32,000 bases of DNA from Faecalibaculum rodentium. Its GTDB lineage: Bacteria > Bacillota_I > Bacilli_A > Erysipelotrichales > Erysipelotrichaceae. Positions 3,084 to 20,439 of this stretch are shown piece after piece (position 1 is the stretch's first letter; every line of letters starts with the position of its first letter). The notes under the pieces are model-generated. The model did not search any database. It was given only the letters and a program-made list of their open reading frames with translations, and was not told the origin of the DNA. The stretch is from NCBI RefSeq assembly GCF_001564455.1, contig NZ_CP011391.1, forward strand, positions 2,160,001 through 2,192,000, written 5' to 3'. Made by a program: the position numbers and the translations under genes.

Positions 3084-4191
3084 AGTGTTTCCCTTTTAAT
3101 ACAGCAGCAGCAAATTTCAGCGAACCGCAGTACAGTGCCGGTTTGTCTGATGACAGGGATTCCTCCAGGGAAACCAGGTCCAGGCCGAACTGCGCCGACA
3201 GTTCTTCCAGATCCGCCAGCCTCCGGGTGTCAAAACGGACCAGAGTCACGGCTTTTCCCGTCTCCAGCAGCCTTCTAATCATCTCCGGTGCCTGTTTGTC
3301 CGCCAGCACTGAGAAGAAAATCCGGTCCACCCCGGGCAGAGACCGGCAAAGAGCTTCGATGCCTTCGGGATTGTGGGCGCCGTCCACGACCTGGAGGGGA
3401 TCCTGGCTGACAACCTGCATCCGTCCTGGCCAGAAGAAGTTCTTTTCTGCCTGTTCCAGCGGTTTCACAGGAATGTTCGCTGCCGTCAGCAGCGCTGCTG
3501 CCAGTCCCAGGTTGGCTTCCTGGTACTTTGGAAAGTCCTCGGGCAGCGAAAGAGCCGGAACTTTGGTCAGAAGAGTTCCGGCCTGGGCCGCTTCGCGGGA
3601 AAGAATTTCAAAAAGTGCCGGATCCTGTTCTGCGGTGAGTGCGGGAATGCCGGGTTTGAAGATGCCGGCTTTGGCTTTTGCGATTTCTTCCAAAGTGTTG
3701 CCCAGATACTGCATATGGTCCCGGCCGATGTTGGTGATTCCCGTCGCCAGGTAGTCCAGTGCGGTCGTCGCATCCCGCTCACCGCCAAGACCTGTCTCCA
3801 TCAGCATGAGATCCACGCGGTTTTCCGCAAACCAGACCATGGCCATCCAGAGGTCGGCTTCGAACATTGTGAAGTCCTGTTCTTCAAACAGCGGCAGCCA
3901 GCGGTCGTAAATCTCTTCCCATTTGTCTGCCGGGATTGGCTGATGGTTGACAGCCATGCGTTCGAAATGACTGAACATATGGGGTGAGGTAAAGGTGCCG
4001 ATGACAGGTCTGTCCGCCAGCAGTGACATCCAGGTCACGGTGCTGCCTTTGCCGTTGGTGCCGGCGACCTGGATGGCGGGGATTTTCAGAGTTTCCGGAA
4101 TATGCTGCTCCATCAGCTTTCGCAGCTGTCCTGGAGGGCGGTTTATGCCGATGCGGGATTCCAGGGCTGCGATTTTTTCGCTCAGTGTCAT
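3064..4191 (-). CDS. folC: Bifunctional folylpolyglutamate synthase / dihydrofolate synthase
   Basis: Motifs VAGTNGKGST, TSPH, ETGLGGERDAT and ITNIGRDHMQYLG. The ORF-track start at 4323 would run antisense through ung. I place the start at the internal ATG 4191-4189 (MTLSEKIAALE...). Confidence 0.88.
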   Translation of the reverse strand: MTLSEKIAALESRIGINRPPGQLRKLMEQHIPETLKIPAIQVAGTNGKGSTVTWMSLLADRPVIGTFTSPHMFSHFERMAVNHQPIPADKWEEIYDRWLPLFEEQDFTMFEADLWMAMVWFAENRVDLMLMETGLGGERDATTALDYLATGITNIGRDHMQYLGNTLEEIAKAKAGIFKPGIPALTAEQDPALFEILSREAAQAGTLLTKVPALSLPEDFPKYQEANLGLAAALLTAANIPVKPLEQAEKNFFWPGRMQVVSQDPLQVVDGAHNPEGIEALCRSLPGVDRIFFSVLADKQAPEMIRRLLETGKAVTLVRFDTRRLADLEELSAQFGLDLVSLEESLSSDKPALYCGSLKFAAAVLKGKHYDKHEF

Positions 4192-6368: not shown

Positions 6369-7790
6369 CTAAATCGTTGATATCGCTCCAGTTTGATATT
6401 CACATTGAGCAATTCCTATCTGGGCCAGTAACTGCTCTATCTTGTGTTTCATCTCATCATCTGTATTCTGCAGCATCTCTACGATCTCTTTTGCGGTCCT
6501 GATAATTGCCGGAGCATCTGTTGCCTCTGCTGATGTCTCCATACTCTGTTCCCGCTCACTCTGTTCTTTTTCCAATACCGCCGGGATCTGTTTCTTTCTC
6601 TCTTGGAAATATTCACCTGTCTGGAACATATGATAGGCAAGAACCATCATCTTTCTCGCAATCGCAATCAATGCGCGTTTTTTACCGCGTCGGGCTGCGA
6701 TAGCCTCATACTTCCCCTTGAAATATGGGTGCTTCACTGCGTTCAGAGCACATTGAATCAACACAGGCTTTAGATAATATCCGCCTTTTCCAATTTTGAC
6801 CGATTTATGTTTGTTGTTGCTCTGATTGCTTTGAGGGCACAGTCCACACCAGCTTATGAAGTGCTTCTCGTTCTTGAACTGTCCCATGTCTGTTCCTGTT
6901 TCGCTTAGTATCTGCATCGCCGAAAGCCCGGAGATTCCCGGGATGGAATCAAGCAAATCAAGATAGGACTTGAATGGTTCGAGAATTTCCGTCATCATTT
7001 GTTCGTAGCGTTGGATTTGCGCAGTGAGTCGGTCAACTCTTTCATACGCATTTTCAAGCTCGAATTTCTGGACGGAGGAGAACTTTGCACCAGCGAATGC
7101 TTTGCGAAGTTCTTCTTCTTTTTCTTTGCGCTCTTTATGGGTGGAGAACCGCATGATCCGGCAGCTTTTCCGTATCCGCTTTTTCACTTCCTCCAAATCC
7201 GGTTCCTCTGTCGTGAGCAGGTATTCGATCACACTTCGGGCCGACTCTCCTTCGATCCCGGAAAAAACAAGATCCATACGGATATTCGCTTCTGTCAGAA
7301 TATTCCGGATCCTTCGGATCGTATCCCCTCTTTCCTGTACCAGTTTAGTTCTGGACCGTGAGAGCCTTCTGGATTCCCGAAGCTCCCGGACCGGGATATA
7401 TGACTCTCTCAACAGACCGTTGGCCCCAAGTTCAGCGATCCAGGCACAGTCTTTCTGGTCCGTTTTTTGTCCGGCTATGGTCCGGACATGCTTTGGGTTG
7501 ACGATATGGGGTTTCAATCCCATTTCCTCACAGACATCAAAAACAGGGGTGGAATACTTTCCGGTCGATTCCATATAAACATCTATCGCTCTGTCTTCCA
7601 GATCCGGAAGAGTTGTATAGATCCATTCACACATTGAGGCAAGATCTGTATGATTTGAGTCAAATTTTTTGGTGACGAACACAAGCCCGTCTTTCCCTTT
7701 GGCCGGATCTTTGAAGGTCACACAGGCCCAGACATTATTTCTATGGACATCCAAACCGACACAGACCGGTTTTCTGTTACGAACAGCCAT
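6369..7790 (-). CDS. IS110-family transposase (DEDD N-terminal domain plus Transposase_20 C-terminal domain)
   Basis: 473 aa. The N-terminus is KPVCVGLDVHRNNVWACV. The C-terminal block is IPGISGLSAMQILSETGTDMGQFKNEKHFISWCGLCPQSNQS. A GAGAGGA RBS lies upstream of ATG 7790. Confidence 0.93.
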   Translation of the reverse strand: MAVRNRKPVCVGLDVHRNNVWACVTFKDPAKGKDGLVFVTKKFDSNHTDLASMCEWIYTTLPDLEDRAIDVYMESTGKYSTPVFDVCEEMGLKPHIVNPKHVRTIAGQKTDQKDCAWIAELGANGLLRESYIPVRELRESRRLSRSRTKLVQERGDTIRRIRNILTEANIRMDLVFSGIEGESARSVIEYLLTTEEPDLEEVKKRIRKSCRIMRFSTHKERKEKEEELRKAFAGAKFSSVQKFELENAYERVDRLTAQIQRYEQMMTEILEPFKSYLDLLDSIPGISGLSAMQILSETGTDMGQFKNEKHFISWCGLCPQSNQSNNKHKSVKIGKGGYYLKPVLIQCALNAVKHPYFKGKYEAIAARRGKKRALIAIARKMMVLAYHMFQTGEYFQERKKQIPAVLEKEQSEREQSMETSAEATDAPAIIRTAKEIVEMLQNTDDEMKHKIEQLLAQIGIAQCEYQTGAISTI

Positions 7791-17312: not shown

Positions 17313-17338
17313 AAAAAAAAGGAAGTTGCGAACTTCCT
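17313..17338 (-). terminator. Intrinsic terminator ending the cas3 / mini-CRISPR transcription unit
   Basis: The minus strand reads AGGAAGTT-CGC-AACTTCCT followed by a further seven T (an 8-T run counting the stem's last T; plus-strand A-run 17313-17320). Confidence 0.8.
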
Positions 17339-17411
17339 AAACCCTGCAAGTGCAGGGATAAGTGGCAACTTCCGTTATTTTACGGATCACCCCGGCTAGT
17401 GCTGGGATATA
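17335..17411 (-). ncRNA. Cre-like mini-CRISPR: degenerate repeat, 21-nt pseudo-spacer, degenerate repeat
   Basis: On the minus strand, psiR-A (17411-17384) is TATATCCCAGCACTAGCCGGGGTGATCC. It matches the array repeat at 22/28, and the last 10 nt are identical. The psi-spacer (17383-17363) is GTAAAATAACGGAAGTTGCCA. psiR-B (17362-17335) is CTTATCCCTGCACTTGCAGGGTTTAGGA. It matches at 17/28, with a perfect 6-bp stem kept by a compensatory C-to-T / G-to-A pair. Confidence 0.65.
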
Positions 17412-17443
17412 AGGGCTGCCTGCAGCCATTATATCCCAGCACT
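17398..17443. repeat. 15-bp perfect inverted repeat (AGTGCTGGGATATAA / TTATATCCCAGCACT) with a palindromic loop, overlapping psiR-A
   Basis: The arms are 17398-17412 and 17429-17443. The loop contains GGCTGC-ct-GCAGCC. It lies 18 nt downstream of the cas3 stop. Confidence 0.85.
17428..17433 (-). promoter_or_regulatory. Perfect TATAAT -10 box upstream of the mini-CRISPR (candidate promoter; weak -35)
   Basis: The minus strand reads GGGATATAATGG, 17 nt upstream of psiR-A. Only poor -35 candidates exist (TGAATT at 17-nt spacing, TTGCCG at 13-nt spacing). Confidence 0.3.
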
Positions 17444-17460: not shown

Positions 17461-20223
17461 TTACCGAATCTTCCGGCTTTCCAGTCCAAACTCAGTTGAA
17501 TAATGAAGATTGAATCCAGCCAGTTCAGCGTCGCCTTTCTCATTTATAACCAGAATCAGTCTGTCTTTCATAATCGGGTTGTCCATCCATAGAGGAAATC
17601 TGTTCTTTGTTGTCTGTTCCAGTTCTGTTTCGGCAGCTTCGTAAGGAATTGATATCGGCAGTGAAATTACTTCCTTCAGCAGTGTCTGCACCTCCCGGAA
17701 GCTCAGCTTTTGATCTGATTTCAAAAGCATGTGTTCATCGTCTACAGGCCGGAATGCACCTGCCTTCTCTCCCTTTAGCAAAATACAACTGATGCTGGGT
17801 TTAATGTCCCTCACCGTTGCCAGTCCCCGTTCTTCCGATGTTTTTGCGTTTGAAATTTTCAGGCCATTGATTCCATGGTCCATACGCAGTTTCTTATATG
17901 GAGGAGCAAGAATGGCTATTTCTGCCTTATCTTCTTTTCCCTTCTCTTCATTCAGATAATTATGATATTTATCCTGTTCTTCCTGTAGCTGGTCAGACTC
18001 GTCTGCATCCTTATAGACAGCATTCACCAGTCTCGGAATATCCTCAGGAATATCAATACTCTGCGGCAGATGTTTTTCGGTCTGATACTGCAACCAGTCG
18101 CTATATACCGCAGAAACAGATCTGTCTGTTTTTTTATCTCCTGGGATAAGCACATGACAGACCGGCTCTTCCAGATTTTTAGGGCGAACCCTGTCTTTGT
18201 GTCGATGCAAACGTCCAATTCGCTGCAGCAGCAGGTCCATTGGAGAGAGTTCTGTGATCATCAGATCAAAGTCCACATCCAGAGACTGTTCAATGACCTG
18301 TGTTCCCACAATCACCAGCCTGTCCCTGATTTTTTGTCTGGATTCGGCTGTCCCCTTTCCTGCGAGAGACAGAACCTCCTTTTCTACTTTGGCTCTGCCT
18401 AGCGAAGTAAATCTGGAATGAAACGGGATGATCTGCCACCCAGGAAGTGCCTTCTGAAGGTAATGAGCCAGCTCCTGTGCTTTTTTAACAGTATTGACGA
18501 TGATACCTGCAACTCCTCCATCACCAAGTTGCTCCTCAAGAATGCTGTATACTTTCTGCTCTCCATCTTCTGTTGATAAGATTTTTTCTTTTATAATCGT
18601 GACCTTTTGCCCCTTTCCCTCCAGAATAAGGGACCTGCAGTCTATTTCTTTCCCATCTGTCCATGTAAAGAGTGGATAACCGGCAACTGTCGTCCATCCC
18701 GGATTCCCTTCCTCCTGATATTTCTTGCCGAAACGCCCTCTTTGGTAAGCCAGTATAAGATTTATCCGACGGGATTGAGGCAAAGTAGCTGACAGTAAAA
18801 TGACCGGGGCATGGTAGCTGCCCAGCCACTCCAGCATTCTTTCGAGATACATATTCATGTAGGCATCATAGGCATGAACTTCATCTATAATTACAGTCTT
18901 GCCGGCGATTCCGGCATGCCGTAACATCACATGTCGCTGGTTCAGGGCTGTCATTAATCCCTGATCCACTGTTCCGACCACAAAGTCCGACATCATCCCT
19001 ACTTTGCGGCCCTGCATCCAGTCGTGAACAATCAGCGAAGATTCATCATTTTTTTCATCTTCATTCAGTCTGGCTGTTCCATGGGGGATCTTTCTATACT
19101 TTTCATTGAATGCTGCCATTCCATGAGCCAGCTTCAAACTTTGCTTTCCACCTTGGGATACCTCTGCAGCCCATTCCTCAAATCGGGGAAACAGTCCATT
19201 GGAAGTAGCCTGAGTTGGAAGTCCAAAATAAATCCCTCCACTTCCTCTTTTGTCAGCATACACATCTGCAGCAGCAAGAGACGCTTCGGTCTTTCCGACA
19301 CCCATCTGGGCTTCGATCACAAGTATCCCGGGATCAGAGCAGCTGGTAACAATCTGAATCAGTTCTGCCTGTACAGGATTCGGAGAGAATCCAAACATCC
19401 CCTTAAAGACCTCGCAAGACATTTCTGCTCCATGCTTATGCCATGCATTGGTAAGAGCCAGATCATTCCATGCCTTCTCAATTCTGTCTGGATAGATATC
19501 TTCTCCTGGGTTTTCACTGACGGGGATCAGCGGAAAATAGTCTGTATTGGAACTGATCCAGTCTGCTTCCACCAGGATTCCGGACAGCAGCAGCCAGGCG
19601 TTCAGGCTCAAATCTGGTATCTCACTGCGACTGATCCCGCATACCCTGCAGACTGTTTCCACAATTTCCTTCCAGGCATCCTGCCAGAATTCCTTCTCCT
19701 GGAGGGATCCATACATAGCCACCGGGTATTGGCTGATTGTTTCTTTCGCCTTTTGAATGGGCTCTCCTGTAAGGGCATCCTGCGATCTTCCATGATGTCC
19801 GCCCAGGACAGATGCAAATGCTTCTGAAAATCCCAGACTGACAAGAATCAGCAAGCTGGATCGTGAATGATGAAGATAATCGGAGACACCAAATCTCTTG
19901 TATGGTAAGGTGTGCCCCTGAAAACCAGCATATCCTTTAAGCTTTTCCAGAAGCATGGACTGAAACACACAGGTTTCCTTTCCCAGATCATGCAGCATCC
20001 CGCATAAGGCGAAGAGTCTGTACAGTCTGCCACTGTCCACACCCTGCTGTATAAAAAACTCCTTTTCCTGGTCAGAAACCCGGTGTTCATAGAGTTTGAT
20101 CATAATCCCGGCTGTATCTGTCATATGCATCCACAATGGAAGATACTTGTTGCTTTCCTGATCAGCCTTTGCTATCGCTCCCTTGCATGCAGCCTTCAAT
20201 TGATTCAATAATTCCCATTCCAT
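17461..20223 (-). CDS. cas3: Cas3 HD nuclease / SF2 helicase (type I signature protein)
   Basis: HD motifs (MLHDLGK, HHSRSS, GGHHG), helicase Walker A (AQMGVGKTEA) and a DEVH box. The ORF-track GTG at 20232 lies inside the GAGGTG RBS. I place the start at ATG 20223 (MEWELLNQ...). Confidence 0.93.
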   Translation of the reverse strand: MEWELLNQLKAACKGAIAKADQESNKYLPLWMHMTDTAGIMIKLYEHRVSDQEKEFFIQQGVDSGRLYRLFALCGMLHDLGKETCVFQSMLLEKLKGYAGFQGHTLPYKRFGVSDYLHHSRSSLLILVSLGFSEAFASVLGGHHGRSQDALTGEPIQKAKETISQYPVAMYGSLQEKEFWQDAWKEIVETVCRVCGISRSEIPDLSLNAWLLLSGILVEADWISSNTDYFPLIPVSENPGEDIYPDRIEKAWNDLALTNAWHKHGAEMSCEVFKGMFGFSPNPVQAELIQIVTSCSDPGILVIEAQMGVGKTEASLAAADVYADKRGSGGIYFGLPTQATSNGLFPRFEEWAAEVSQGGKQSLKLAHGMAAFNEKYRKIPHGTARLNEDEKNDESSLIVHDWMQGRKVGMMSDFVVGTVDQGLMTALNQRHVMLRHAGIAGKTVIIDEVHAYDAYMNMYLERMLEWLGSYHAPVILLSATLPQSRRINLILAYQRGRFGKKYQEEGNPGWTTVAGYPLFTWTDGKEIDCRSLILEGKGQKVTIIKEKILSTEDGEQKVYSILEEQLGDGGVAGIIVNTVKKAQELAHYLQKALPGWQIIPFHSRFTSLGRAKVEKEVLSLAGKGTAESRQKIRDRLVIVGTQVIEQSLDVDFDLMITELSPMDLLLQRIGRLHRHKDRVRPKNLEEPVCHVLIPGDKKTDRSVSAVYSDWLQYQTEKHLPQSIDIPEDIPRLVNAVYKDADESDQLQEEQDKYHNYLNEEKGKEDKAEIAILAPPYKKLRMDHGINGLKISNAKTSEERGLATVRDIKPSISCILLKGEKAGAFRPVDDEHMLLKSDQKLSFREVQTLLKEVISLPISIPYEAAETELEQTTKNRFPLWMDNPIMKDRLILVINEKGDAELAGFNLHYSTEFGLESRKIR

Positions 20224-20439
20224 TCTGCTCACCTCGTTTACTCAGACTGTAACACCAAAAAGCGCACGTTTTATGTCAGTTACAAAACAAACATCTTTTA
20301 TCACTCATGTGAAGCCCAGGAATATGAACGCTCAGTATATAGGGCGAATATAGAAAATATCTATATCTGAACGTAAAATCGGCACAGAGTCCCCAATCCT
20401 TTCCTGGATGCAGTAGGTCTGCGCCGTTTTTCAGTTTCT

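Follow-up and report, generated by a model that had tools for sequence, protein, structure and literature searches.

A CreR-type mini-array predicted to direct Cascade to the cas8e promoter in a type I-E CRISPR-Cas locus of Faecalibaculum rodentium

CRISPR-derived degenerate mini-arrays have been described within type I-E loci. In Salmonella enterica, CreR is a degenerate mini-CRISPR located between cas3 and casA/cas8e (Liu et al., 2023, 10.1101/2023.03.10.532045); it represses the casA promoter (P_casA) approximately 8.6-fold in a reporter, responds to the load of CRISPR RNA (crRNA) and to AcrIE8, and carries a guide with a 15-nt partial match to a site at the casA promoter flanked by a protospacer-adjacent motif (PAM). 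The main text of Shmakov et al. (2023, 10.1101/2023.03.03.530964) reports I-E mini-arrays in about 19% of bacterial I-E loci, situated in long (>200 bp) gaps between cas3 and cas8, with a better conserved upstream repeat and a target at the cas8 promoter that has a cognate PAM and an intact seed. CreA of the CreTA module of Haloarcula hispanica, as summarized by Liu et al. (2023), belongs to type I-B (Li et al., 2021). Shortened pseudo-spacers are reported for type I-F, with 23–27 nt in bacterial and 17–21 nt in viral elements (Shmakov et al., 2023; 10.1101/2024.10.29.618823), and also occur in a viral type I-E example of 24 nt. Here, we describe a mini-array in the 291-bp gap between cas3 and cas8e in a stretch of 32,000 nt of the Faecalibaculum rodentium genome (contig NZ_CP011391.1, positions 2,160,001 to 2,192,000), referred to below as the window.

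The element is very probably a CreR-type crRNA-like mini-array that would make Cascade repress its own operon. It shares with the I-E mini-arrays, as characterized by Shmakov et al. (2023), the long gap, the pattern of repeat conservation, the promoter target, the PAM and the intact seed. The parts of the mini-array (creR) and of its predicted site of action are as follows.

17384-17411, minus strand: psiR1, a degenerate repeat, TATATCCCAGCACTAGCCGGGGTGATCC, identical to the array repeat at 22 of 28 positions
17363-17383, minus strand: psi-spacer, GTAAAATAACGGAAGTTGCCA, 21 nt
17335-17362, minus strand: psiR2, a degenerate repeat, CTTATCCCTGCACTTGCAGGGTTTAGGA, identical to the array repeat at 17 of 28 positions
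17313-17338, minus strand: terminator-like hairpin, AGGAAGTT-CGC-AACTTCCT (17338-17320), followed by eight Ts
17342-17390, minus strand: predicted mature CreR of 49 nt (7-nt handle, 21 nt and 21-nt 3' hairpin)
17309-17331, plus strand: predicted CreR target, with the PAM AAT at 17309-17311 and the protospacer TAAAAAAAAGGAAGTTGCGA at 17312-17331
17270-17298, minus strand: predicted cas8e promoter, TTGTCA-17-TATGAT, matching 10 of 12 positions in a consensus scan

The initial annotation of this DNA had proposed two diverged repeats, a 21-nt psi-spacer, a TATAAT box and a hairpin with eight Ts in the gap, and all of these were recovered at the same positions. Both degenerate repeats lie inside the gap on the same strand and in the same orientation as the array, whose 28-nt repeat is CATGTCCCCGCACCCGCGGGGGTGATCC. 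The last 10 nt of psiR1 are identical to the array repeat, as had been noted, and the final seven, GTGATCC (17390-17384), are the crRNA 5' handle; its 5' part, which had been called degenerate, still agrees at 12 of 18 positions and is less decayed than claimed. The handle part has been lost from psiR2, which retains a perfect Cas6e-type hairpin with a 6-bp stem and a 4-nt loop (CCCTGC-ACTT-GCAGGG, 17357-17342). The earlier description of this stem, including the compensatory double change (C9>T/G18>A) by which it is kept relative to the array repeat, was borne out. When both strands were scanned, psiR1 was the sole non-array sequence within five mismatches of the 25-nt repeat core, and shuffles gave no match at three or fewer mismatches.

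The element is not a canonical array: its repeats are degenerate, and different species share its spacer of 21 nt (versus 33 nt) in conserved form. The mini-array lacks the conserved leader motif that is seen upstream of the real array, and Rfam covariance models gave no match at the gathering threshold in the whole window. The array geometry of the window (28/33) is that of the S. thermophilus I-E system, in which the crRNA consists of a 7-nt 5' handle, a 33-nt spacer and a 21-nt 3' handle (Songailiene et al., 2019, PMC6859484). The mature 49-nt CreR is deduced by analogy with the Cas6e cleavage geometry of 28/33 I-E systems (PMC6859484). Since the first nucleotide of the 33-nt spacer falls in an 8-nt handle in the E. 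coli-type frame, the guide proper was taken as nucleotides 2–21 of the psi-spacer, UAAAAUAACGGAAGUUGCCA. In RNA folding, psiR1 in isolation formed a weakened hairpin with an A.C mismatch, and RNA folded from a start near 17421 gave separate psiR1, psiR2 and terminator hairpins.

The target had not been identified in the initial annotation. The guide is identical to the protospacer at 17 of 20 positions and at 15 of the 17 pairing positions, with mismatches at positions 6, 9 and 19; within Cascade, guide position 6 is flipped out and unpaired. Among seed-anchored matches in the 32-kb window, this non-self site ranks first in total identity (17/20). With an AA PAM required, 15/17 was reached in the 291-bp gap by none of 100,000 shuffled guides (p < 1e-5); without that requirement, it was reached by six. 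The target lies 32 nt from the guide, downstream of it and on the opposite strand, and overlaps the terminator of the mini-array itself, of which the target strand forms the 3' arm and T tract. The PAM is located 10 bp upstream of the -35 element of the predicted cas8e promoter, which is the one good match to a promoter on the minus strand of the gap and whose two hexamers are conserved in an alignment of the window with four relatives (alignment A2).

The PAM was taken to be AAY on the basis of the I-E literature and of a bias in the first spacer nucleotide, which is T or C in 85–93% of spacers in all arrays of the subgroup and almost never A. Pooled over the window array and the arrays of 80 related loci (L001-L080), the counts were T 492, C 462, G 51 and A 19. 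This suggests that spacers incorporate the terminal PAM base (Y), as happens with the G of AAG in E. coli.

Homologous loci are designated below by L and a number. A contig search in which the best Cas8e identity was 45% gave 80 loci, mostly from Clostridia. In most of the Clostridia loci cas3 and cas8e are separated by 2–12 nt, which leaves no space for a mini-array. Gaps of 240–520 nt between these genes occurred only in Erysipelotrichaceae-type loci, and these alone provided informative comparisons. In all 11 Erysipelotrichaceae-type loci examined, a mini-array occupies the corresponding position with the same orientation. Between them, these loci carry nine unrelated pseudo-spacers, and in each locus the best match of the pseudo-spacer lies on the opposite strand, adjoining its own predicted cas8e promoter; wherever the whole fetched locus was scanned, this site was also the best non-self match. 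All of the target sites have an AA[T/C] PAM and leave guide positions 1–5 and 7–8 intact. Positions 6 and/or 12 carry the first mismatches in eight of the nine lineages, the exception being L001/L002, where the match is contiguous to position 15, and complementarity ends at positions 15–23. In a cross-locus matrix, the score of a guide was 12–14 of 14 at its own locus; at other loci it averaged 8.6 and never exceeded 10. Thus, pseudo-spacer and target co-vary in nine independent lineages. The CreA/CreR-class assignment of the initial annotation is strengthened by this covariation and by a PAM-flanked, seed-intact target abutting the cas8e promoter.

The PAM and the -35 element are 1 bp apart in L081/L085 and 8–10 bp apart in eight lineages. 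The L007 target is situated about 330 bp downstream of the mini-array and yet 8 bp from the -35 element; therefore, complementarity tracks the cas8e promoter and not the mini-array or its terminator. The locus in question is that of Allobaculum mucilyticum, where the 330 bp or so between the mini-array terminator and the target (region 9650-9905 of L007) could hold a cargo gene or a small RNA. Compared with L081/L085, the window has 9 extra nt (GTATTTTCT, window 17299-17308) between the PAM and the -35 element, so that its Cascade site lies 10 bp instead of 1 bp upstream of the latter; this 10-bp spacing is also that of more distant lineages.

The mini-array is under purifying selection. Its segments are 81–95% identical between the window and L081 and L085, versus 40% at the four-fold degenerate sites of cas8e, and the neighboring promoter region and 5' untranslated region are 51–61% identical in the same comparisons. 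Although synonymous divergence is saturated, the window, L081 and L085 have the same guide, with two to four substitutions, so the pseudo-spacer has been fixed in these three loci, without turnover by adaptation. The lengths of the A-run in the guide and of the T-run in the target shift jointly, being 7/7 in L081 and 8/8 in the window and L085. Across five loci compared with their own repeats, psiR1 is 94% identical over the last 10 nt and 32% over the first 18 nt, and psiR2 is 68% identical over the first 21 nt and 31% over the last 7 nt. The alignment of related loci proposed as a check in the initial annotation thus revealed preferential conservation of the handle and hairpin and not neutral decay.

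A few loci gave other results. The 200-nt gap of L072 contained no handle-like sequence. In L027, an Anaerovoracaceae locus with abutting cas3 and cas8e genes, one repeat-like unit, TTCCTGCACATGCGGGGGGTGATCC, is found at 6995-7035, approximately 220 nt upstream of the cas3 start (7253); possible readings are a solitary repeat and a mini-array at the operon promoter. Intergenic sequence was recovered for only a few relatives. Among the short-read Logan contigs of close relatives (L082-L084, L087 and L088), several end inside the gap, 75–130 nt upstream of cas8e, which may reflect an assembly break near a palindromic or low-complexity region.

The transcription of creR could start from a TATAAT box upstream of psiR1. 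The box and the structure that encloses it are listed here.

17428-17433, minus strand: -10-like TATAAT box, candidate creR promoter by sequence, without a convincing -35 element
17398-17443, minus strand: inverted repeat or hairpin of 15 bp + 5 bp in RNA folding, enclosing the TATAAT box

The hexamer ATAATG is invariant in all four relatives of alignment A2, and the consensus promoter scan called no full promoter at the TATAAT box. The box belongs to the 5' arm of the inverted repeat, and the 3' arm covers the 5' half of psiR1. A compensatory change was detected in this structure, with CTGGGA/TCCCAG in the window versus CAGGGA/TCCCTG in L081 (alignment A2). Analogous arrangements, with a TATAAT inside a hairpin of unrelated sequence, were observed in L003 (approximately 3922-3953), L091 (approximately 2757-2783) and L089 (approximately 2771-2786). 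The inverted repeat could serve as a 3'-end or terminator structure of cas3, as a site of processing or as a means of controlling creR transcription. The initial annotation had called the unit its own small-RNA gene; a TATAAT box and a terminator-like hairpin are indeed present, and the designation is plausible, but the box lies inside an inverted repeat and has no good -35 element.

From these features we infer how the element would be transcribed and processed, the stoichiometry of its complex, and how it would repress without Cas3 cleavage. A transcript spanning psiR1, the psi-spacer and psiR2 would begin at the TATAAT box or arise by read-through from cas3, and Cas6e would cut it at the base of both repeat-like hairpins. 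The product would be an RNA of about 49 nt with a normal 5' handle (GUGAUCC+G), a 20-nt guide and a normal 3' hairpin, loaded into a short Cascade that probably has two fewer Cas7 and one fewer Cse2. This complex would read the AAT PAM at 17309-17311 of the plus strand and pair with the minus strand at 17331-17312. The resulting R-loop of no more than 20 bp would be too short to lock, and it is for this reason that Cas3 is proposed not to be licensed. Bound 10 bp upstream of the cas8e -35 element, the complex would occlude the promoter and block read-through from cas3 and creR. The outcome would be negative feedback on Cascade synthesis, and, by analogy with the published work on CreR, the repression would be lifted if Cas proteins were sequestered by abundant array crRNAs or by anti-CRISPR proteins.

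Several points weigh against this interpretation. The creR promoter consists of a -10 box within a strong inverted repeat, without a convincing -35 element, and the cas8e promoter is a consensus prediction only. All close relatives have a central mismatch (A.C, T.T, G.A) in the psiR1 stem, whose sequence in distant relatives bears no relation to the repeat; cleavage by Cas6e at psiR1 is therefore not assured, and the enzyme might refuse such a weakened stem. The guide of the window is truly mismatched at position 9, where those of its relatives are matched. The PAM was not independently established: a BLAST comparison of the array with phage and plasmid collections matched only other CRISPR arrays, viral contigs contained no exact match to two leader-proximal spacers, and zero protospacers were recovered from these searches. 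Finally, full safety from self-cleavage is an assumption, since an E. coli crRNA shortened by 12 nt (-12) keeps weak Cas3 activity. That crRNA undergoes processing; its footprint is short and weak, and it affords no protection against phage or transformation, while weak plasmid loss and weak Cas3 cleavage remain (PMC5159557).

The repeats are degenerate, and repeat-like sequences appear sporadically in I-E loci (Shmakov et al., 2023); one could thus regard the element as the decaying remnant of an old array or as an ectopic repeat insertion, functionless and drifting neutrally. This is extremely unlikely in view of the 81–95% conservation of the mini-array against 40% at synonymous sites, a level that excludes recent horizontal copies, of a decay so partitioned that handle and hairpin are spared, and of the guide-target covariation in nine lineages. 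Titration of Cas6e or of Cascade subunits by the hairpins, in the manner of Racr-type solitary repeats and without DNA guiding, is just as hard to credit. RNA anti-CRISPRs that mimic repeats are known (PMC10651486) and psiR2 retains a perfect Cas6e-type hairpin, yet the element lies in the cas operon of the host and not on a mobile element, and a decoy would predict neither a conserved 5' handle nor a guide that co-varies with a PAM-flanked site.

Two further explanations are very improbable, although each accounts for part of the data. The element might act in cis as an RNA structure, namely a terminator/antiterminator or an element of the cas3 mRNA 3' end, with Cascade uninvolved and the pseudo-spacer conserved for pairing with the downstream terminator 3' arm and U tract of the same transcript. 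When the RNA is folded from within cas3, the pseudo-spacer pairs with the terminator 3' arm in the minimum-free-energy structure (-71.7 kcal/mol, z = -6.8); just 32 nt separate guide and target in the window clade, and the L094 target likewise overlaps the terminator. However, RNA folded from the predicted start forms three separate hairpins, the complementary site of L007 is about 330 nt away and adjoins the cas8e -35 element, an AA[T/C] trinucleotide stands exactly at the PAM position of every complementary site, and the clustering of mismatches at positions 6 and 12 is a property of Cascade and not of an RNA helix. The RNA-only terminator/antiterminator was rejected on account of L007, the PAM and the 6/12 pattern. 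Slightly more room is left for an addiction module of the CreTA type, in which the CreA-like RNA mainly represses a small toxin gene by the target, so that loss of the cas operon would be lethal. The anatomy is that of CreA elements, toxin-antitoxin genes are enriched beside mini-arrays, and small open reading frames (ORFs) of 20–45 codons are present in the gap. A search of the gap for a CreT-like toxin, however, found only small ORFs that have no ribosome-binding site and are not conserved in alignment A2, although a toxin acting as RNA is conceivable. The only minus-strand promoter-like site adjoining the target would drive cas8e, and the sole plus-strand match, TTTAAA-16-TACAAT (17284-17311), ends at the PAM and scores 9/12, of which about 0.9 are expected by chance. 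In addition, the region from the target to cas8e is only 51–61% identical to that of close relatives and is therefore drifting. CreR-type repression of the cas operon by Cascade remains the reading that we prefer.

Under that reading, the length of the guide deserves separate consideration. The initial annotation had described the pseudo-spacer as exactly 33 minus 12 nt, or two 6-nt Cas7 steps. This holds for the window and L081 but fails in other relatives: the distance from handle to hairpin is 26, 26 and 27 nt in the window, L081 and L085 (the window clade), versus 38 nt in the array, 29 nt in another lineage and 37–40 nt in others. These values (26, 26, 27, 29, 37–40) do not support a strict quantization of pseudo-spacer length, and the 6-nt steps hold approximately. 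In S. thermophilus Cascade, locking of the R-loop, and hence the action of Cas3, requires at least 28 bp; the -12 complex, with a spacer of 21 nt, assembles in the expected stoichiometry, two Cas7 and one Cse2 being absent, in contrast to the defective -6 and -18 complexes, and none of the shortened complexes locks the R-loop (PMC6859484). The proposal that a complex of this kind binds DNA without licensing Cas3 agrees with these -12 data (PMC6859484) and is qualified by the weak cleavage retained in E. coli (PMC5159557). The nine natural guide-target duplexes are all 23 bp or shorter, below the locking threshold. In relatives with 33-nt pseudo-spacers the R-loop is limited by mismatches, and in the window clade by guide length; the L085 guide pairs at 19 of 20 positions. 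It is conceivable, though we hold it only tentatively and think it rather less probable than its negation, that the window clade switched from an ancestral, mismatch-limited 33-nt pseudo-spacer to a guide about 12 nt shorter with near-full pairing, that is, to a natural mini-Cascade. Such a complex would have an altered stoichiometry of four Cas7 and one Cse2, and Cas3 would be avoided only because the R-loop cannot reach 28 bp. As the target strand coincides with the terminator arm and U tract of creR, a single binding event could then block the cas8e promoter, cas3 read-through and possibly creR termination.

The window contains a complete type I-E cas locus on the minus strand, as seen from the ORF list and NCBIfam models, which comprises cse2, cas7, cas5 and cas1 in addition to the features given below. 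The nearest homologues of Cas8e belong to Faecalibaculum, Allobaculum and Ileibacterium.

17461-20232, minus strand: cas3, 923 amino acids, with NCBIfam Cas3 core and HD domain models; stop at 17461
15520-17169, minus strand: cas8e (cse1), TIGR02547, with a TTG start at 17169 after AGGAGG; 1263 homologues
12513-13154, minus strand: cas6e, the presumed processing enzyme, TIGR01907; start approximate, set by analogy to the 213-amino-acid gene call in L088
10650-11552, minus strand: cas2-dnaQ fusion of the type I-E locus
8167-10635, minus strand: canonical CRISPR array of 41 repeats and 40 spacers of 33 nt

The array is the source of the crRNAs that compete with the mini-array RNA. In the window, the cas2-dnaQ stop and repeat 1 are just 14 nt apart. 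Directly before repeat 1 (window 10636-10700, minus strand) lies the conserved motif CCTTTAyATAAAGGG(G)TTATTTAG, which was found also in L085 (16470-16569), L086 (16470-16581) and L003 (approximately 10590-10660), and the cas2-dnaQ reading frame of the window extends into it. Given the short spacing and the entry of the frame into the motif, the promoter and integration signals of the array must overlap the end of cas2-dnaQ. The oldest (trailer) repeats, at 8167-8375, vary, with the loop CATCC in place of CACCC and one CACCT, and one badly degraded repeat unit occurs at 8229-8256, at the trailer end of the array. In L088, a 99%-identical relative, the leader-proximal first repeat (6655-6693) is the CATCC variant; hence, the window and L088 strains differ in their leader-end repeat sequence.

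As far as sequence can be used to judge, the element has all of the defining features of the CreR class. Membership in this class, as put forward in the initial annotation, is upheld, whereas the novelty implied there is not: the class has already been described for type I-E between cas3 and cas8e, and the element is not of a new kind. No mention of Erysipelotrichaceae, Firmicutes or Cas2-DnaQ loci was found in the main text of Shmakov et al. (2023), and the subgroup of S. thermophilus-type (St-type) I-E systems with Cas2-DnaQ in Erysipelotrichaceae was not found named in the main texts of Liu et al. (2023) and Shmakov et al. (2023). The present results extend putative CreR-type autoregulation to the Cas2-DnaQ-bearing, S. 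thermophilus-type I-E subgroup of gut Erysipelotrichaceae and leave the current picture of CRISPR regulation unchanged. Nine guides that co-vary with their promoter-proximal targets, with a near-fixed spacing between PAM and -35 element and mismatches at positions 6 and 12, provide a natural series that could help to calibrate the computational detection of crRNA-like regulators. In addition, the 21-nt guide is the equivalent in nature of the engineered -12 crRNA, whose biophysics in S. thermophilus Cascade is already characterized, so that the notion of a shortened guide allowing binding but not cleavage can be tested directly in a native system.

Comparison with the described systems demonstrated both shared and distinct traits. 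As in Salmonella CreR, psiR1 keeps the nucleotides of the 5' handle and psiR2 the hairpin of the 3' handle. The Salmonella system has an E. coli-type repeat-spacer geometry (29/32), an AAG PAM and no Cas2-DnaQ, whereas that of the window is St-type (28/33) with an AA[T/C] PAM. The target of Salmonella CreR lies approximately 140 bp upstream of casA, whereas the target in the window overlaps creR's own terminator, and, unlike in Salmonella, the guide has a reduced length of 21 nt, nearly all of which is matched. The predicted mode of action resembles that of H. hispanica CreA as outlined by Liu et al. (2023), where a Cas6-processed crRNA-like RNA with a partial match lets Cascade repress a promoter without cleavage; CreA also represses the cas8 promoter (P_cas8). 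CreA is archaeal and coupled to the toxin RNA CreT, whereas the window has no evident toxin. The mini-arrays described here share short pseudo-spacers and mismatches at positions 6 and 12 with the P. aeruginosa I-F1 mini-array RNA and with I-F CreA/CreR/Cracr, and the targets of I-F mini-arrays are likewise upstream of cas8. The I-F systems differ in using the Csy complex and a CC PAM, and in them the length of the pseudo-spacer matters for discrimination by AcrIF24. The engineered S. thermophilus -12 crRNA has the same repeat/spacer geometry and a 21-nt spacer (Songailiene et al., 2019); its complex binds DNA without R-loop locking, yet it is a laboratory construct and not a natural regulator (PMC6859484).

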